Shown: positions 5,365 to 61,884 of the stretch, one piece after another
Layout of the letters: every line of letters begins with the position of its first letter
Numbering within the stretch: position 1 is the first letter of the stretch
Origin: Bordetella parapertussis
GTDB lineage: Bacteria; Pseudomonadota; Gammaproteobacteria; Burkholderiales; SG8-41
Direction: 5' to 3'
Assembly: GCA_945885345.1 (NCBI GenBank)
Contig: CAMCYP010000005.1
Span: forward strand, 7,021 to 71,020
DNA length: 64,000 bases
The notes under the pieces: model-generated
Database searches by the model: none
What the model saw: the letters and a program-made list of their open reading frames with translations, nothing else
What the model was told of the DNA's origin: nothing
Made by a program: the position numbers and the translations under genes

Positions 5365-5398
5365 TTGTTTAAAAACAATTACTTATAGGGTTTAACGG

Positions 5399-10897: not shown

Positions 10898-10948
10898 CTT
10901 AGTTAGCTAGCTAAGATAAATAATTGATTTTATTTGTTTATTTTTATA

Positions 10949-22687: not shown

Positions 22688-22762
22688 GTGCGGTGGGGAG
22701 TGAGGAGTGTGGGCTGAGGTGCGCTACGGCGGATATATAAAAATATCAATAAAAACAAATAC

Positions 22763-25345
22763 TTATGATTTATTGCCGGGCTGCGTCAATTCACGCAGCC
22801 GGTAGAGCAGTTCCAGCGCATCGCGCGGCGTCAGCGCATCGGGGTCGCAGTCGCGTAGCGCATCGACGGCAGGATGCGGCTCTGGTGTCGCGGGTTCATT
22901 TGTCGGAGCGGAACCCGAGAACAAATCACCCTGCGGTACCTGCGCCGCCGCCGCAGCTTCCAGATCGGCCAGGCGTTTTTTTGCGCTGCGGATTACCGCG
23001 CCGGGTACGCCGGCGAGTTGTGCCACCTGCAAGCCGTAACTGCGGCTCGCCGGGCCTTCCTCGACGCTGTGCAGAAACACGATGCGGTCTTTATGTTCGA
23101 CCGCATCGAGATGCACGTTGGCCACCTGTTTGAATTCGACTGCGAGTTGCGTCAATTCAAAATAATGCGTGGCGAACAGCGTGTAACAGGCATTGCGTTC
23201 GATCAGGTGGTGCGCAATGGCCCAGGCCAGCGCGAGGCCGTCGTAAGTCGAAGTGCCGCGGCCGATTTCATCCATCAGCACCAGGCTCTGCGGCGTGGCG
23301 TGGTGCAGGATATAGGCGGCCTCGGTCATCTCGACCATGAAGGTCGAGCGGCCGCCGGCAAGATCATCCGCAGCGCCGATACGCGTGAAAATACGGTCCA
23401 GCGGGCCCAGCCGTGCACGTGTTGCCGGCACGAAGGATCCGCAATGTGCGAGCAGCGCAATCAGCGCGGTCTGCCGCATGTAGGTGGATTTACCGCCCAT
23501 GTTCGGGCCGGTGATCAGCAGCATGCGGCGCGTTGCTGACAGGCGCGCGTCGTTGGCAATGAAGGGGCTGGCCTGCGCTTCGACCACCGGATGGCGGCCG
23601 GCGGTGATGTCGATCACCGCTTCGTCGGTGAATTCCGGCGCCGACCAGTTGAGTGCAGTTGCGCGTTCGGCGAAGGTCGCCAGCATGTCGAGTTCGGCGA
23701 GTGCTGACGCAACGCGCTGCAGCTCCGGCACATGGGGGGCAAGTTTCGCCAGCAGCTGGTCGTAGAGCAGTTTTTCGCGTGCCAGCGCGCGATCCTGCGC
23801 CGACAGCGCCTTGTCCTCGAAGGTCTTCAGTTCCGGTGTGATGTAACGCTCGGCATTTTTCAGCGTCTGCCGGCGGCGATAATCATCCGGTACTTTTTCC
23901 GACTGCGCGCGCGTGACTTCGATATAGAAACCATGCACGCGGTTGAATTCCACTTTCAGCGTGGTAATGCCGGTACGTGTGCGTTCACGCACTTCGAGCT
24001 CAGCGAGGAAGGCGCCGCAGTTGTCCTGGATGCCGCGCAGTTCGTCGAGCTCGGCGTCGTAACCGTCAGCGATCACGCCACCTTCGCGGATCACCGATGA
24101 CGGTTCCGTTTTGACCGCTGCGGCCAGCAGGGCCGCCAGTTCATGCTGTGGGGCGAGGTCGGTGGCCAGCGCACGCAGGCGTGTAGTGCCGGTATCGCTG
24201 AGGGTTTGCACCAGTTCCGGCAGTCTCTGCAGTGAACTGCGCAGGCCGGACAGATCGCGTGGTCGTGCGGTGGCCAGTGCGACGCGGGCCGCGATGCGTT
24301 CGACATCGGAAAAATGCTTTAACGCACCGAGCAGGGGGACATAACGCTCGTTGCTTATCAGTTCGGCGACGGCCTGATGCAGCGACTGCACCAGCGCACG
24401 GTCGGTCAGCGGGTGGTGCAGCGCGTGGCGCAGCCGGCGGCTGCCCATGCCGGTGGCGCAGGTGTCGAGCAGCGACAGCAGTGTCGGCGCGGGTTCGCCG
24501 CGGATGGTTTCGGTGATTTCGAGATTGCGTCTTGTCGCCGGATCCATACGCAGATAGGCGCGTTCGGTTTCCACGGTCAGCGCGCGGACGTGGGCGATGG
24601 CCGATCCCTGCGTGGATTTGGCATAGTCGAGCAGCGCACCGGCAGCAGCGATGGCGACATCCATCGTCTGCGCGCCGAAGCCACTTAAATCATGGGTATC
24701 AAACTGCGCGCACAAGGTGCGGCGTGCGGTGTCGGTGTCAAAGCGCCACGGCGGCAGGTGGCGGACCGCGGTGCCGTCATCGACCGTATCCAGGGTTGCA
24801 CCTTCAGCCATCAGGATTTCCGCGGGACGCAGGCGTTCGATCTCGGCGGCAAAGTTCGTCGGCGCGGTTTCCATGACGCAGAAGCGCCCTGAGGCCAGCG
24901 ACAGCCAGGCCAGCCCCAGCAGATTGCCGCTGCGGTGCGCGGCGAGCAGCAGGTTTTCGCTTTTTTCGTCGAGCAGCGCTGATTCGGTCAGCGTGCCCGG
25001 CGTGACGATGCGCATCACCTTGCGTTCGACAGGGCCCTTGGAGGTGGCCGGGTCACCGATCTGTTCGCAGATGGCGACGGATTCGCCGAGCTTCACCAGC
25101 TTGGCCAGATACTGGTCCAGTGCATGGAAGGGCACACCGGCCATCTTGATCGGCGTGCCGGCTGATTCGCCGCGCGAGGTCAGCGTGATGTCCATCAGCC
25201 GCGCCGCGCGTTCGGCATCGTCGAAAAACAGCTCGTAGAAATCGCCCATGCGGTAGAACACCAGCTGATCCGGGTGCTCCGATTTGATGCGCAGGTACTG
25301 CTGCATCATTGGAGTATGTGCAGCGAAGGGCGTTTCCGGTTTCAT
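22763..25345 (-). CDS. mutS: DNA mismatch repair protein MutS
   Basis: [13 protein letters not shown]-terminus, Walker [10 protein letters not shown]. Start set at MKPETPF (25345); the track ORF extends to 25426. Confidence 0.95.
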
Positions 25346-32395: not shown

Positions 32396-32493
32396 TCACC
32401 ATAATCCATTGTTTTTATTGAATTATTCAATTCCCCCTTATTCTTGATTAAAATAGTGGGTCATCATGGCCGCTAATCCCTCAGGCAACGCAA

Positions 32494-44977: not shown

Positions 44978-45246
44978 CACGCCTGCTGCTGATGGCTCTG
45001 CTGTGCGGCCCAGTAGCCGGATATGCTGCCGGCGATCCGCAACGCGGCGAAAAACTGCATGCTGATTGCCTGGGTTGCCACGGTGCCGCGCTTTATGTGG
45101 CGCCACGGGCAAAAATCAACACACCGGTATCGCTGAAAAAGGAGGTCGAGCGCTGGAACGACCGTATGAATCCCAAATTCAGCAAACAGGACATCGAAGA
45201 TCTGCTGGCTTACCTGGATCGGGACTTTTATAAATTCACGCGGTAG
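44974..45246 (+). CDS. small monoheme c-type cytochrome
   Basis: 90 aa. Signal peptide, single CLGCH haem-binding motif. Confidence 0.6.
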   Translation: MTRLLLMALLCGPVAGYAAGDPQRGEKLHADCLGCHGAALYVAPRAKINTPVSLKKEVERWNDRMNPKFSKQDIEDLLAYLDRDFYKFTR

Positions 45247-45299
45247 AGGGGATCGGGGTGGTGCTGGGGATTATGATCTAAGTATTTGTTTTTATTTAA

Positions 45300-58041: not shown

Positions 58042-61000
58042 CTACGCCAGTTCGGCAAACACGCGGCGGATCTCGGCGACGCGAGCTTTCAGTTCAGGGA
58101 TTTTGATGTCGATGCGCAGACGGTCCGGGCCGGCGAGTTTGTAATTGCGTCTGGTCTGGATCAGCTTGATGATTTTCATTGGTTCGATCGGCGGATTCGG
58201 CACGAACTGCAGCTGGATCGCATTGTCGCTGGCGTCGATGCGCGCGATGCCCAGCGGTTTGCCGTGGATGCGCAGGCGGTGGCTGTCGATCAAGACGCGC
58301 GTCGGATCCGGCAGATCACCGAAGCGGTCGATCAATTCTTCCTGCAGCAGCTGCAACTGATCGTCGCTGCCGCAGTTGGCGAGACGTTTGTAAATCACCA
58401 GCCGTTCGTGCACGTCGCTGCAGTAGGCATCAGGCAGCAGGGCAGGCGTATGCAGGTTGATCTCGGTGGTGACGCCCAGCGGTGCATTGAGGTCCGGCTC
58501 CTTGCCGGCTTTCAACGCCTTCACTGCAGTGTCGAGCATCGCGCAATACAGGTTGAAGCCGATTTCCTGCATCTCGCCCGACTGCGAATCGCCCAGCACT
58601 TCGCCGGCGCCGCGGATTTCGAGATCGTGCATGGCGAGGAAAAACCCGGAACCGAGTTCTTCCATGGACTGGATCGCTTCCAGGCGTTTTTTCGCACCGA
58701 TGGTGATGTTGCCTTCATCGGGCAGCAGCAGGTAGGCATAGGCCTGGTGGTGCGAGCGGCCGACCCGCCCGCGCAACTGGTGCAGCTGTGCCAGGCCGAA
58801 ACGGTCGGCGCGATTGATGATAATGGTGTTGGCGGTGGGAATGTCGATGCCGGTTTCGATGATGGTGGTGCACAACAGCACATTGAAACGGCCCTGATAA
58901 AAATCGCGCATCGCGAGTTCGAGGTCACGTTCACGCATCTGGCCGTGGGCGATACGGATCCGTGCTTCGGGCAGGAGCTGTACCAGTTCTTCCTCGATGT
59001 TGCGGATGGTGTCGATGTCGTTGTGCAGGAAATAAACCTGGCCGCCGCGTTTCAGTTCGCGCAGCACGGCTTCACGGATCAGGGATTTGGCGTAGCGGGC
59101 GACGAAGGTTTTGATCGCGAGGCGGCGCTGCGGTGCGGTGGCGATCACCGAAAAGTCACGCAGGCCTTCCAGCGACATCGCCAGCGTGCGCGGGATGGGT
59201 GTCGCCGTGAGTGTCAGCACGTCGACTTCGGCGCGCAGGGCCTTCAGCCGTTCCTTCTGGTGCACGCCGAAGCGGTGTTCTTCGTCGATGATCACCAGGC
59301 CGAGGTTCTTGAATTTGATGTCGCGGCCGATCAGCTTGTGCGTGCCGATGGCGATGTCGATGCGGCCTGCGGTGATGCCGGCGAGCGCGTCCGTCGTTTC
59401 AGCAGTGCTGCGGAAGCGTGACAGTTCGGCGATTTTGACCGGCCAGTCGGCAAAGCGGTCGGAGAAGGTATTGAAATGCTGTTCTGCCAGCAGCGTCGTC
59501 GGTACCAGCACGGCGACCTGCTTGCCGTCAGCCACTGCAACAAAGGCGGCGCGCAGGGCGACTTCGGTTTTGCCGAAGCCGACATCGCCGCAGACCAGGC
59601 GATCCATCGGTTTGCTGCTTTTGAGGTCTTCGAGCGTGGCGTTGATCGCCGCGGCCTGATCCGGCGTCTCTTCGAAAGGAAAACCTTCGGCGAAGGCTTC
59701 GTAGTCATGCGGCTTCAGCGAGAAAGCATAACCTTCGCGCGCCGCGCGCTGCGCATACAGCGCCAGCAGTTCGGCGGCGGTATCGCGCACCTGCGCTGCG
59801 GCTTTTTTCTTTGCCTTGTCCCACTGTCCGCTGCCCAGCTGGTGCAGGGGCGCCTGATCCGCGGATGCGCCGCTGTAACGGCTGATCAGGTGCAGGCTCG
59901 ACACCGGCACATACAGCTTGTCGTTGTTGGCGTATTCCAGTGTCAGGAATTCCGTCGTGCCTTCACCGAGGTCCAGCGTCTGCAGGCCGACATAACGGCC
60001 GATGCCATGGGTTTCATGCACCACCGGATCGCCGATCTTGACCTCGGACAGATCGCGCAGCATGTTTTCCGGCGACGACCGTTTTGCATCGCGCACAGCG
60101 CGCTGGCGCGCCTGCGCGGCATAGAGTTCGTTTTCGGTAACGATCGCAAGATGCGCAGCGACATTGATGAAACCGGTCTGCAGCGGGGCCACGCTCAATA
60201 CAAATTTTGCGTCGCTGGCCCTGAAGCCCGCGTAGTCCGCGACCTGCGCCGGCTTCAGGTCGTATTCCGCGAAGTACTCGAGCATGGTTTCGCGGCGGCC
60301 CAGGCTTTCGGCGAGCACCAGCACGCGACCATCGAAGCCATTGATAAAGGCGCGCAGCCGGTGCAGCGGATCGTCGGTGCGGCGTTCGACATTCAGCAGT
60401 GGCAGCGATGCGGTCGCGGCCTGCTCATGGTTTTCTCCCTCTCCCCGCGAGCGGGGAGAGGGTTGGGGTGAGGGGGTACCACCGACCCCTACCCTCACCC
60501 CAACCCTCTCCCGCCCTAGGGTAGGAGAGGGGGTTTCTTCTAAGTAATTGTTTTTATTGTTATTTTTATCGGTTCCCGCAGGGAAGCCAGGCGCCACTAC
60601 GTTGAGATCAATGCGCGGGAAGGGCTTGATCGCACCGAAGAATGCGTCTTCGGTCAGGAATAATTCCTGCGGCGGCAGCACCGGATTGGCGAGGTCACCG
60701 CGCACCATCGCATGCCGGCCACGGGTGTCGGCCCAGAATTCATCAATGGCCTCGGCCACGCCGGGACGCAGGCAGATCGTCGTGCCCTTGGGCAGGTAAT
60801 CGGTGACCAGTGCCGTGTTGTCAAAAAACAGCGGCAGGAAATATTCGATGCCCGCAGTCGGGATGCCCTTGGACACATCCTTGTACACCTTGCTGCGTGA
60901 GGGGTCGCCTTCGAAACGTTCGCGGAAACGCTGACGAAACTGTTTTTGCGCCTCTTCGTCCATCGGGAATTCGCGTGCCGGCAGCAATCGCACTTCCGGC

Positions 61001-61605
61001 ACTTTCATGATCGTGCGCTGGCTGTCGATGTCGAAACTGCGGATGGTGTCGATGACTTCGTCGAACAGATCGATGCGGTAGGGCAGCGGGCTGCCCATCG
61101 GGTAAAGATCGATCAGCCCGCCGCGGAAACTGTATTCGCCGGGGGCGACGACCTGTGTCACATGGTTGTAGCCGGCCAGCACCAGCTGGTGGCGCAGCGC
61201 ATCGGCGCCGAGTTTTGCGCCCTGGCGGAAATAAAAGGTATTGGCGGTGATGTAATCCACCGGCGCCATGCGGTACAGCGCCGTGGTCACCGGCACCAGC
61301 GCGATGTCGAAATCGCCGCGCACCATTTCGCACAGCGTCGCCAGCCGTTCCGATACCAGATCATGGTGCGGCGAGAACTGGTCCCAGGGCAGGGTTTCCC
61401 AGTCGGGCAGCAGGTGCACGCGCAACTGCGGCGCGAAGAACGGAATCTCCTGCAACAGGCGCTGCGCCTGCCAGGCCGACTCGGTAATCACCAGCAATGG
61501 ACGTGCGCGGGCCGCCAGCGCGGCGAGCGCCGGAGCATCACTCGAACCCTGCAGCAGTGCAGTGCTTGCGCGCTGCCCCGGTGCGGGCAGCTGGAGGGGA
61601 AGCAT
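58042..61605 (-). CDS. mfd: transcription-repair coupling factor Mfd, carrying an in-frame repeat-derived insertion
   Basis: 1187 aa. Helicase motif I CGDVGFGKTEVA, motif II IIDEEHRFG, C-terminal TRG/D7 regions. Residues about 345-392 are low-complexity and encoded by a palindromic repeat. Confidence 0.95.
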   Translation of the reverse strand: MLPLQLPAPGQRASTALLQGSSDAPALAALAARARPLLVITESAWQAQRLLQEIPFFAPQLRVHLLPDWETLPWDQFSPHHDLVSERLATLCEMVRGDFDIALVPVTTALYRMAPVDYITANTFYFRQGAKLGADALRHQLVLAGYNHVTQVVAPGEYSFRGGLIDLYPMGSPLPYRIDLFDEVIDTIRSFDIDSQRTIMKVPEVRLLPAREFPMDEEAQKQFRQRFRERFEGDPSRSKVYKDVSKGIPTAGIEYFLPLFFDNTALVTDYLPKGTTICLRPGVAEAIDEFWADTRGRHAMVRGDLANPVLPPQELFLTEDAFFGAIKPFPRIDLNVVAPGFPAGTDKNNNKNNYLEETPSPTLGRERVGVRVGVGGTPSPQPSPRSRGEGENHEQAATASLPLLNVERRTDDPLHRLRAFINGFDGRVLVLAESLGRRETMLEYFAEYDLKPAQVADYAGFRASDAKFVLSVAPLQTGFINVAAHLAIVTENELYAAQARQRAVRDAKRSSPENMLRDLSEVKIGDPVVHETHGIGRYVGLQTLDLGEGTTEFLTLEYANNDKLYVPVSSLHLISRYSGASADQAPLHQLGSGQWDKAKKKAAAQVRDTAAELLALYAQRAAREGYAFSLKPHDYEAFAEGFPFEETPDQAAAINATLEDLKSSKPMDRLVCGDVGFGKTEVALRAAFVAVADGKQVAVLVPTTLLAEQHFNTFSDRFADWPVKIAELSRFRSTAETTDALAGITAGRIDIAIGTHKLIGRDIKFKNLGLVIIDEEHRFGVHQKERLKALRAEVDVLTLTATPIPRTLAMSLEGLRDFSVIATAPQRRLAIKTFVARYAKSLIREAVLRELKRGGQVYFLHNDIDTIRNIEEELVQLLPEARIRIAHGQMRERDLELAMRDFYQGRFNVLLCTTIIETGIDIPTANTIIINRADRFGLAQLHQLRGRVGRSHHQAYAYLLLPDEGNITIGAKKRLEAIQSMEELGSGFFLAMHDLEIRGAGEVLGDSQSGEMQEIGFNLYCAMLDTAVKALKAGKEPDLNAPLGVTTEINLHTPALLPDAYCSDVHERLVIYKRLANCGSDDQLQLLQEELIDRFGDLPDPTRVLIDSHRLRIHGKPLGIARIDASDNAIQLQFVPNPPIEPMKIIKLIQTRRNYKLAGPDRLRIDIKIPELKARVAEIRRVFAELA
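60431..60570. repeat. GC-rich nested palindromic repeat plus AT-rich tail embedded in mfd
   Basis: TTTTCTCCCTCTCCCCGC-gag-GCGGGGAGAGGGTTGGGGTGAGGGGG...CCCTCACCCCAACCCTCTCC...CTAAGTAATTGTTTTTATTG. A related copy lies at about 61746-61818. Confidence 0.85.
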
Positions 61606-61686
61606 CAGATGCGGTCTTGCGAAAGGGCGCTATTATAAACACGACCAGTTGTTTATACGGTGAAGACGCGCATGATCATTTTCAGT

Positions 61687-61884
61687 CGTCATTCCGGCGC
61701 GCCCCGAAGGAAGTCCTCTTGGAGGGAAAGCCGGAATCCAGTTTATTTTTCTCCCTCTCCCCGCATGTCGCGGGGAGACAAGGGCACACTTGAAGCGAGG
61801 CAGGGTTGGGGAGAGGGGCTGCTACTGCGCTTCATATTGAAGGTTTTAAATAACCTCTGGATTCCGGCTTGCGCCGGAATGACG
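61687..61884. repeat. composite repeat: REP-like CGTCATTCCGGC...GCCGGAATCCAG arms enclosing a CTCCCTCTCCCCGC-type element
   Basis: The reverse complement of the right arm (61857-61884) is CGTCATTCCGGCGCAAGCCGGAATCCAG. The left arm from 61687 is the same with an insert of about 27 nt in its loop. The interior matches the element inside mfd. Confidence 0.8.

Follow-up and report, generated by a model that had tools for sequence, protein, structure and literature searches.

A BoxC-type triplex-motif pair lying in frame within mfd, and a possible link of such pairs to DUF559 endonuclease genes

Results

A palindrome inside an intact mfd gene

We analysed a 64-kb window (the whole stretch of 64,000 nt from contig CAMCYP010000005.1) in which mfd, the gene for the transcription-repair coupling factor, carries a GC-rich palindrome within its coding sequence (Table 1). 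A sequence-only reading had described the mfd open reading frame (ORF) as unbroken and the palindrome as nested, and both descriptions hold. A Pfam scan of the 1187-aa protein found seven Mfd domains, and the D1-D7 architecture is complete (UvrB_inter 126-213, MFD_D3 420-494 and CarD_TRCF_RID 523-578, followed in the C-terminal half by DEAD 647-808, Helicase_C 847-951 and TRCF 1051-1144). The protein matched the Escherichia coli Mfd structures over its full length (6x26 and 2eyq, 1183 bits). Residues 10-336 aligned with E. coli 14-341, and residues 400-1186 with E. coli 357-1142. Compared to E. coli Mfd there is a surplus of ~48 residues, located between the domains that we take to be D1b and D3 of the 2EYQ structure.

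The 21-mer GGGAGAGGGTTGGGGTGAGGG occurs in this part of mfd as two perfect copies, inverted to each other, within 60437-60531, and each copy has a CCCTCTCC hairpin before it. We located three sets of inverted arms: perfect 12-nt arms (60437-48 and 60451-62), perfect 21-nt arms separated by a 17-nt spacer (60454-74 and 60492-512), and 14-nt arms (60504-17 and 60518-31). The window contains the pattern GGGNGAGGGNNNGGGNGAGGG 3 times, where 0.06 occurrences would be expected. Folding was computed as hairpin only, with shuffled sequences as controls, and gave −37.7 kcal/mol for the element as single-stranded DNA (z −5.2) and −76.3 kcal/mol for the sense mRNA (z −5.9). A promoter and terminator scan of 60300-60700 returned no site. 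Rfam, which has no family for the triplex motif, gave no match at gathering score over the entire window; on the element itself we observed generic GC-hairpin (microRNA-precursor) matches and a weak sX13 match (28 bits vs a cut-off of 50). If translated, the insert region of Mfd would yield the peptides VGVGGTPSPQPSPR and GEGENHEQAATASLPLLNVER. The 46-aa insert peptide gave no scorable candidate as a protein-search query.

Table 1. Coordinates of mfd and of the repeats discussed in the text (positions in the 64-kb window).
Feature	Position	Strand	Sequence or remark
mfd (transcription-repair coupling factor)	58042..61605	minus	1187 aa, ORF without interruption
Left flank	60429..60436	+	GGTTTTCT; imperfect direct repeat with 60532-60539; same octamer beside E. 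coli BoxC copies
Net inserted block	60432..60539		108 nt = 36 codons; residues ~356-392, EETPSPTLGRERVGVRVGVGGTPSPQPSPRSRGEGEN; from DNA alignment with empty-site L001, L003, L005
Triplex motif 1	60437..60474	+	CCCTCTCCCCGC-ga-GCGGGGAGAGGG-TTG-GGGTGAGGG
Spacer	60475..60491		17 nt, between inward-facing G-rich / C-rich third-strand blocks
Triplex motif 2 (inverted)	60492..60531	-	CCCTCTCCTACCCTAGGGCGGGAGAGGG-TTG-GGGTGAGGG on minus strand
Right-flank direct repeat	60532..60539	+	GGTTTCTT; AAGAAACC in gene orientation
AT-rich repeat	60540..60570	-	GATAAAAATAACAATAAAAACAATTACTTAG in gene orientation; residues ~345-355, DKNNNKNNYL
AT-motif core copy	5368-5385	+	
AT-motif core copy	10917-10934	-	
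AT-motif core copy	22748-22765	+	
AT-motif core copy	32402-32419	-	
AT-motif core copy	45279-45296	-	
AT-motif core copy	60541-60558		in mfd
Outer palindromic repeat around variant motif	61687..61884		CGTCATTCCGGCGC ... GCGCCGGAATGACG and AAGCCGGAATCCAG ... CTGGATTCCGGCTT
Variant triplex motif	61751..61818	+	GGGGAGA/CAAGGGCACACTTGAAGCGAGGCA/GGG-TTG-GGGAGAGGG; 24-nt insert in second block

The palindrome matches a known family of triplex motifs

Judged by its sequence pattern, the element is an inverted pair of the intrastrand-triplex motifs (TMs) of the known BoxC / PIT / TMECO repeat family. Holder et al. 2015 equate TMECO with BoxC (Bergler 1992) and with the PIT elements of Hoyne & Maher (2000, 2002), and define the TMECO pattern as CCCTCNCCC-N3-6-GGGNGAGGG-N3-GGGNGAGGG (PMC4666352). 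Both G blocks of the mfd element, with TTG as N3, fit this pattern with 0 mismatches on both strands, and the C blocks pair with them. The first loops deviate, with 8 nt (self-paired) and ~10 nt vs the published 3-6. The two motifs are on opposite strands with their third-strand blocks inward, as in TMECO 1+2. The best E. coli match of the element, an alignment over 91% of the query length that includes the GGTTTTCT flank, is the hrpB-mrcB spacer, which is the TMECO 1+2 locus in Table 1 of Holder et al. (PMC4666352). The mfd pair therefore shares its sequence pattern, inverted-pair layout and flank with the E. coli copies. Unlike the E. coli pairs, which combine TTA with CCG, it has TTG in both second loops.

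TMECO forms an intrastrand triplex in vitro, is exclusively intergenic in K-12, has been reported in 262 proteobacterial genomes and has been tied to local genomic instability; PIT/BoxC in E. coli has no promoter or terminator activity (PMC4666352). The mfd copy differs from the K-12 copies in its location, as it lies inside an ORF and would be translated. The range of the motif is also wider than the published one. We observed the exact 21-mer in at least 119 species genomes (124 sites); the hosts among the matches listed include Beta-, Alpha- and Gammaproteobacteria and Myxococcota and, beyond the proteobacteria of the published range, Planctomycetota, Chloroflexota, Cyanobacteria, Bacteroidota, Actinomycetota and Patescibacteria. 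A CTCCCTCTCCC-loop hairpin precedes the 21-mer in every listed match, and the mirror image often follows 30-80 nt further on. The repeat family as such is present in hundreds of unrelated genomes, for the most part in intergenic positions. Related places number 9 per E. coli genome (median), and TM density in loci of related metagenome-assembled genomes (MAGs) is ~0.7-1 per 100 kb; the window holds only the mfd pair and one variant TM. Motif matches were found in 2 of 50,697 phage records and in 324 of 72,556 plasmid records, mostly rhizobial megaplasmids, and these records gave no sign of a dedicated vector. One match overlaps annotated kdpC on rhizobial plasmids (H32-H35, Rhizobium sp. N621 and relatives, ~301936-301999) and could be a further coding or gene-end copy.

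The sequence-only reading had proposed a mobile or REP-like element in a coding region. The insertion of an intergenic-type repeat was borne out and the REP identity was rejected on the sequence of the motif and the gene family that it flanks. Like REP and BIME sequences with their RAYT genes, the TMs are short GC-rich extragenic palindromes, are frequently in inverted pairs and flank a dedicated gene. They lack the GTAG/CGTC head of REP, their hairpin has a third, G-rich block, and the gene family that they flank is DUF559, a PD-(D/E)XK (Vsr-like) family, whereas REP pairs flank the RAYT gene, a Y1 transposase. As in a miniature inverted-repeat transposable element, the ends are terminal inverted repeats (the two TMs). 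Longer elements with the same ends exist; these candidate mobile units (TM-DUF559-TM) encode a PD-(D/E)XK endonuclease domain and no recognised transposase.

The closest likeness in behaviour is to Rickettsia palindromic elements (RPE) and Coxiella miniature elements, which are stop-free palindromes in frame in housekeeping proteins that add a surface peptide (PMC5896051; PMC1779305; PMC3184786; PMC10969869). The mfd element is likewise a repeat known between genes that lies in frame in a conserved protein with an intact ORF, and like RPE it has no transposase of its own. Unlike RPE, which is restricted to one genus and unrelated in sequence by inspection, the triplex motif is spread over many phyla and has a candidate protein partner in DUF559.

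Triplex motifs lie in frame in other conserved proteins

In 32 cases among the 119 loci (124 sites listed), a stop-to-stop ORF runs through the motif and extends at least 80 codons to each side. Seven of these ORFs were put to Pfam, and all seven had domains on both sides of the motif or spanning it. The hosts are HsdR (L012), UDP-galactopyranose mutase Glf (L042), IleS (L097), MnmE (L114), CtaA/COX15 (L082), CheA (L039) and PriA (L036). Because ~6% of the exact-21-mer loci listed are thus in frame in real genes, intergenic position describes the E. coli K-12 copies and does not define the triplex-motif family.

Five of the six TM reading frames are open, the only stop frame being GGG TGA GGG. 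All five open frames are used in host proteins (PSPQPSP, LTPTLS, PHPNPL, GEGWGEG and ERVGVR), and the encoded peptide is rich in Pro, Ser, Gly, Arg and Glu. Further long ORFs run through TMs in L020, L078, L111, L113 and L021, the last being glnE of a Planctomycetota genome. The L021 GlnE ORF seems to hold two TMs, with garbage beyond the second, where it may be frameshifted.

The mfd site has a layered insertion history

We compared the window with the DNA of its five closest Mfd relatives (L001-L005), which are 83-90% identical to the window over the alignment; over the N-terminal 345 columns of the protein, identity to the window Mfd is 89.8-91.3%. Three relatives (L001, L003 and L005) have no BoxC pair at an otherwise alignable site. 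In gene orientation, with a slash at the junction, this empty site reads AATAAAAACAATGAnTTAC/TGAATnCCG...CCGCTGCC, and the filled site of the window reads AATAAAAACAATTACTTAG/AAGAAACCCCCTCTCC...GGGGAGAGGGAGAAAACC...CTGCCA. L002 carries a variant element at the identical junction (...GAGTTAC/AAGAAACCCCCTCTCCCCGC...GGCGGGAGAGGAAGAAACC...), in frame, with a longer, rearranged insert of 177 nt. The distance between the NKNN and VE anchors is 50 residues in the window vs 14 in L001, and the net gain compared to the closest relatives is 36 codons (108 nt). The ends of this block are uncertain by a few nt owing to the flanking direct repeat.

The orthologue alignment proposed by the sequence-only reading thus places the insertion limits at ~60432-60539 and identifies empty alleles. 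Its claim that the length is a multiple of three with no stop in the frame used is confirmed by the 108 nt and the open ORF. It had also counted ~46 added residues. The residues are indeed extra, and they do not stem from a single event: the alignments indicate two insertions, an older AT-rich repeat (~10 codons) and then the 36-codon BoxC pair.

The pair is flanked in the window by GAAGAAACC and GAGAAAACC, and in L002 by a perfect 8-nt AAGAAACC at both ends. In E. coli the octamer is found at only one end of the copies, so the 8-9-nt direct repeat around the pair may belong to the element itself. The junction common to the window and L002 would fit either one ancestral BoxC insertion followed by rearrangement, or a strict site preference. 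Protein distances among the six close Mfds are nearly equal (89.5-93% identity), and the neighbour-joining tree is star-like with a weak grouping of the window with P0001; these distances are too even for the tree to choose between one insertion and two. A 4-nt deletion in the mfd linker of L005 (1374-1500) leaves two overlapping ORFs (409-1482 and 1425-2237), and the downstream one starts at an ATG inside the linker. Either mfd is split or inactivated in L005, or the sequence contains an error.

An older AT-rich repeat adjoins the pair

The AT-rich motif next to the pair is present in the window as 3 copies of a 20-mer and 6 copies of an 18-mer core, against 0.00-0.01 expected. As first noticed from the sequence, it otherwise lies between genes: all five non-mfd copies are in gaps between long ORFs. 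Its ~30-nt consensus, TAAAAATATCAATAAAAACAAATACTTAT, occurs on many contigs of GC-rich Burkholderiales and Betaproteobacteria MAGs, where it mostly begins 7-10 nt past a stop codon, with a TAA of its own that often resembles the stop. The mfd copy is the only classifiable one inside a real gene. The motif was found in mfd of all six close relatives, in degraded form in L001-L005. Because it is also in mfd of relatives that lack BoxC, it is a separate, older, clade-specific intergenic repeat that came to lie in frame.

The AT motif gave no Rfam, promoter or terminator match, and an IHF site or a sigma-70 promoter was unconvincing on inspection by eye. G-rich stretches (GGGGAGTGAGGAGTGTGGGCTGAGG; GAGGGGATCGGGGTGGTGCTGGGG) adjoin two of the intergenic copies (22690-22720 and 45245-45270) and may be decayed triplex-motif remnants.

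A variant motif and an outer repeat lie upstream of mfd

A second GC-rich copy had been reported at ~61746-61818. We did observe a related motif there, ~150 nt upstream of the mfd start; it is a variant TM with a 24-nt internal insert and not a plain copy. This variant also makes up the two ends of the insert in the L002 mfd linker. Because all 23 exact matches of the 24-nt insert are in related Burkholderiales / Betaproteobacteria MAGs, often several per MAG, the variant is a clade-specific subfamily.

The short mfd upstream regions of L001, L002 and L005 lack the outer palindromic repeat around the variant, and L004 has a similar one. In ORFs this family reads ...IPA.AGIQ / DSRLRGND; it is found upstream of mfd in L004 and in the P0091 Mfd linker. 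Directly upstream of the mfd start (61615-61640, minus strand), the block GCGTTTATAATAGCGCCCTTT is unchanged in L001, L002, L004 and L005. It holds a perfect TATAAT and is probably the -10 region of the mfd promoter.

The Mfd linker is a recurrent landing site

The insertion site is the D1b-D3 linker. Among ~110 betaproteobacterial Mfd homologues, the segment corresponding to R331-R407 is mostly 19-30 aa long with a tail up to 103 aa, and shows no sequence conservation. We modelled residues 1-522 with AlphaFold (76-row alignment, mean predicted local distance difference test score (pLDDT) 84.6); pLDDT was <50 for residues 340-387 and >90 for the last D1b strand (331-336) and D3. The insert is therefore predicted to be a disordered surface loop, and the linker between the UvrB-homology module and D3 is as tolerant as had been supposed.

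Other lineages have filled the same linker. We observed one perfect TM in the mfd linker DNA of L245 (P0011) and two TMs in the opposite, outward-facing arrangement in L246 (P0088; also P0111). The P0091 linker holds an unrelated '...DSRLRGND...' repeat of the same family as the outer repeat of the window (61687-61884), the linkers of P0006, P0018 and P0019 hold yet other repeats, and local tandem duplications are present in those of P0006 and P0011. At least 3 further betaproteobacterial Mfd lineages thus carry TMs or other repeats here. The sequence-only reading had held that a similar segment in distant orthologues would speak against an insertion. Such segments do exist (P0011, P0088/P0111), in other layouts and with intervening lineages that lack them, which indicates separate insertions at a hotspot and not vertical conservation. 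With a background of ~0.7-1 TM per 100 kb in comparable loci, five TM-bearing linkers among ~110 Mfds is an estimated ~50-fold above expectation for a 90-nt target. Because of this excess the linker counts as a real hotspot, with tolerance as the most economical explanation.

Triplex motifs bracket DUF559 endonuclease genes

In PriA of L036, two TMs bracket a complete DUF559 domain. A TM directly adjoins DUF559 ORFs in L007 and L099 and, in L014, a 28-aa remnant. An alignment of the three full TM-adjacent sequences served as query against species genomes, and we counted TMs at the best 80 of 573 confirmed relatives (loci L247-L326). A strict TM was within 150 nt of the DUF559 (PF04480) ORF at 50 of these 80 loci, and on both sides at 22, with median gaps of 44 nt on the upstream and 22 nt on the downstream side. 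The upstream TM was in '+' orientation in 26 of 35 cases and the downstream TM in '-' orientation in 30 of 37, which is the BoxC-pair layout with the ORF replacing the spacer; the 17-nt spacer of the mfd pair is the position that the DUF559 ORF takes in full cassettes of other genomes. Near the DUF559 ORF we counted 169 TMs per 100 kb, as opposed to 15 per 100 kb elsewhere in the same loci; 830 kb of unrelated loci gave 0.72 per 100 kb, and the excess over this background is ~230-fold.

The DUF559 loci come from hosts as different as Patescibacteria, Melainabacteria and Proteobacteria, and one from a Bathyarchaeia MAG (examples of loci: L274 901-1353, L250 925-1383 and L247 959-1391), and the link is also present in the clade of the window (L243, L348). 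The entire TM-DUF559-TM unit is in frame in HsdM (L250), an M14 peptidase (L256, L263), IspE (L262) and PriA (L247). Vsr-like nucleases include homing enzymes such as I-Bth0305I. Like homing-endonuclease genes and inteins, the units in these four proteins leave the host ORF unbroken. Unlike inteins or introns, they have no intein splicing domains or intron, the insert appears to remain in the protein, and it is bounded by flexible, repeat-encoded arms.

In E. coli K-12, a TM-type hairpin covers the stop codon of ycjD (b1289, a DUF559 gene; NC_000913.3 1351030-1351830, L328). A full TM follows ~190 nt past this hairpin, directly upstream of fabI (envM), with a duplicated ycjD 3' remnant in between. 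Because the paper on the envM/fabI sequence was the one that introduced BoxC (Bergler 1992), this TM is probably the original BoxC copy.

Discussion

Our overall interpretation, which we consider probable, is that 60437-60531 is a BoxC/PIT/TMECO pair that landed in frame in a tolerant Mfd linker and was kept as a passenger. The data themselves show what the element is, that close relatives lack it at this site, that the frame is open, that the linker varies strongly and is modelled at low confidence, and that such motifs recur in other Mfd lineages and other proteins. The 108-nt pair would have entered the D1b-D3 linker directly beside the older in-frame AT-rich repeat, most likely by a passive mechanism in which break and repair inserted a structure-prone selfish repeat. 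Because the length is a multiple of three and five of the six TM frames are open, Mfd would be read through and gain a disordered surface loop, and the protein would be made and would work. Loss of frame would cost the Mfd motor domains, which would explain why an in-frame insert was kept, and the insertion would persist because the linker tolerates almost any length and sequence. The stable mRNA hairpin (−76 kcal/mol) and possible triplex or cruciform DNA may make the site unstable, and such instability would account for the rearranged 177-nt allele in L002.

The alternative that survives best, although we think it rather unlikely, is that the window and L002 gained their elements independently, with the AT-rich motif (…TTAC/TTAG) as a preferred TM target. 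In both, the insertion begins directly behind the TTA(C/G) of the AT motif and the 16-nt junction is identical, 4 or 5 of 23 variant TMs in related MAGs are within ~50 nt of an AT motif, and the near-equidistance of the six Mfds leaves room for two events. However, a single event predicts the shared junction equally, and a strict TM was within 100 nt at 0 of ~87 GC-rich AT-motif loci. Adjacency counted from the TM side was 17%, close to the ~11% that we roughly estimate by chance for two intergenic repeats.

An adaptive insertion appears improbable, and a tolerated selfish passenger is most likely. Such an insert might tune translation or decay through an mRNA hairpin, make the site a hotspot for Mfd switching, or provide a new protein-interaction loop. 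The very stable sense-strand hairpin, the recurrence of insertions in this linker in several lineages and the L005 deletion that splits mfd into two ORFs would fit these ideas. The inserted peptide, however, differs between the window and L002 except at the repeat termini, unrelated repeat families fill the linker elsewhere, and the loop is predicted to be disordered. A regulatory role is also at odds with the lack of promoter or terminator activity of PIT/BoxC in E. coli (PMC4666352) and with our negative scan of the site.

It is very improbable that an assembler made or misplaced the palindrome, as a hairpin chimera or collapsed repeat, and that the true linker is short. Assemblers are known to go wrong at long perfect inverted repeats, the related contig L004 stops exactly at the AT motif, and the junction pattern gave 0 matches in metagenome contigs. 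Against this, the insert preserves the frame and its flanks align cleanly with the relatives, L002 is an independent sample with a homologous element in frame at the same junction, and in-frame TMs are in the mfd linker of two unrelated assemblies (L245 and L246). Least probable of all is a local origin, in which GC-rich linker codons slipped or were duplicated and only came to resemble BoxC; the tandem duplications in P0006 and P0011 could be cited for it, and it is contradicted by two perfect copies of a 21-mer exact in at least 119 unrelated genomes and by a layout that aligns with E. coli BoxC lengthwise, including the GGTTTTCT flank.

Beyond mfd, BoxC pairs would be ORF-less relatives of the TM-DUF559-TM cassettes, and the DUF559 endonuclease (a Vsr-like PD-(D/E)XK protein) would be the likely agent that seeds them via DNA breaks and repair. 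We tentatively put forward, at a little less than even confidence, that BoxC/TMECO pairs are ORF-less miniatures of a pan-bacterial selfish TM-DUF559-TM cassette spread by its nuclease, with the Mfd linker as a recurrent landing site. Cassette and miniatures would survive in conserved proteins (PriA, HsdM, IspE, IleS, Glf, Mfd) because their arms read as a flexible Pro/Ser/Gly linker in five of six frames.

Several points weigh against the passenger interpretation and its DUF559 extension. That the insert is translated and that this Mfd is active are both assumptions from the sequence. A clear target-site duplication did not emerge, and a consistent one is also missing at the flanks of the DUF559 cassettes. 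Holder et al. saw neither a tie to mobile elements nor a stable triplex in vivo (PMC4666352). The 64-kb window has no DUF559 gene, ~96% of the 119 TM loci have none nearby, and the TM-flanked fraction of 62% applies to a subfamily seeded by three TM-adjacent genes. Homing of DUF559 genes into pre-existing BoxC pairs, with causation reversed, would explain the association equally well.

BoxC/TMECO pairs have had no explanation since their description in 1992 (Bergler 1992), and in the searchable literature we found no paper tying DUF559 to BoxC and none on BoxC inside genes. What is new here is a known repeat family in a context that has been undescribed for it. For mfd the meaning is modest: 36 repeat-derived residues in a repair factor, useful for annotation and for mapping permissive sites. 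For BoxC/TM repeats, described as strictly intergenic and without a known route of spreading, we observed copies in ORFs of bona fide proteins in several phyla. For many odd 'PSPQPSP / GEGWGEG / ERVGVR' stretches of database proteins, translated triplex motifs now offer an explanation. Overall, the bracketing of DUF559 offers a testable candidate for the origin and mobility of BoxC, and would place DUF559 proteins such as E. coli YcjD in a functional context for the first time.

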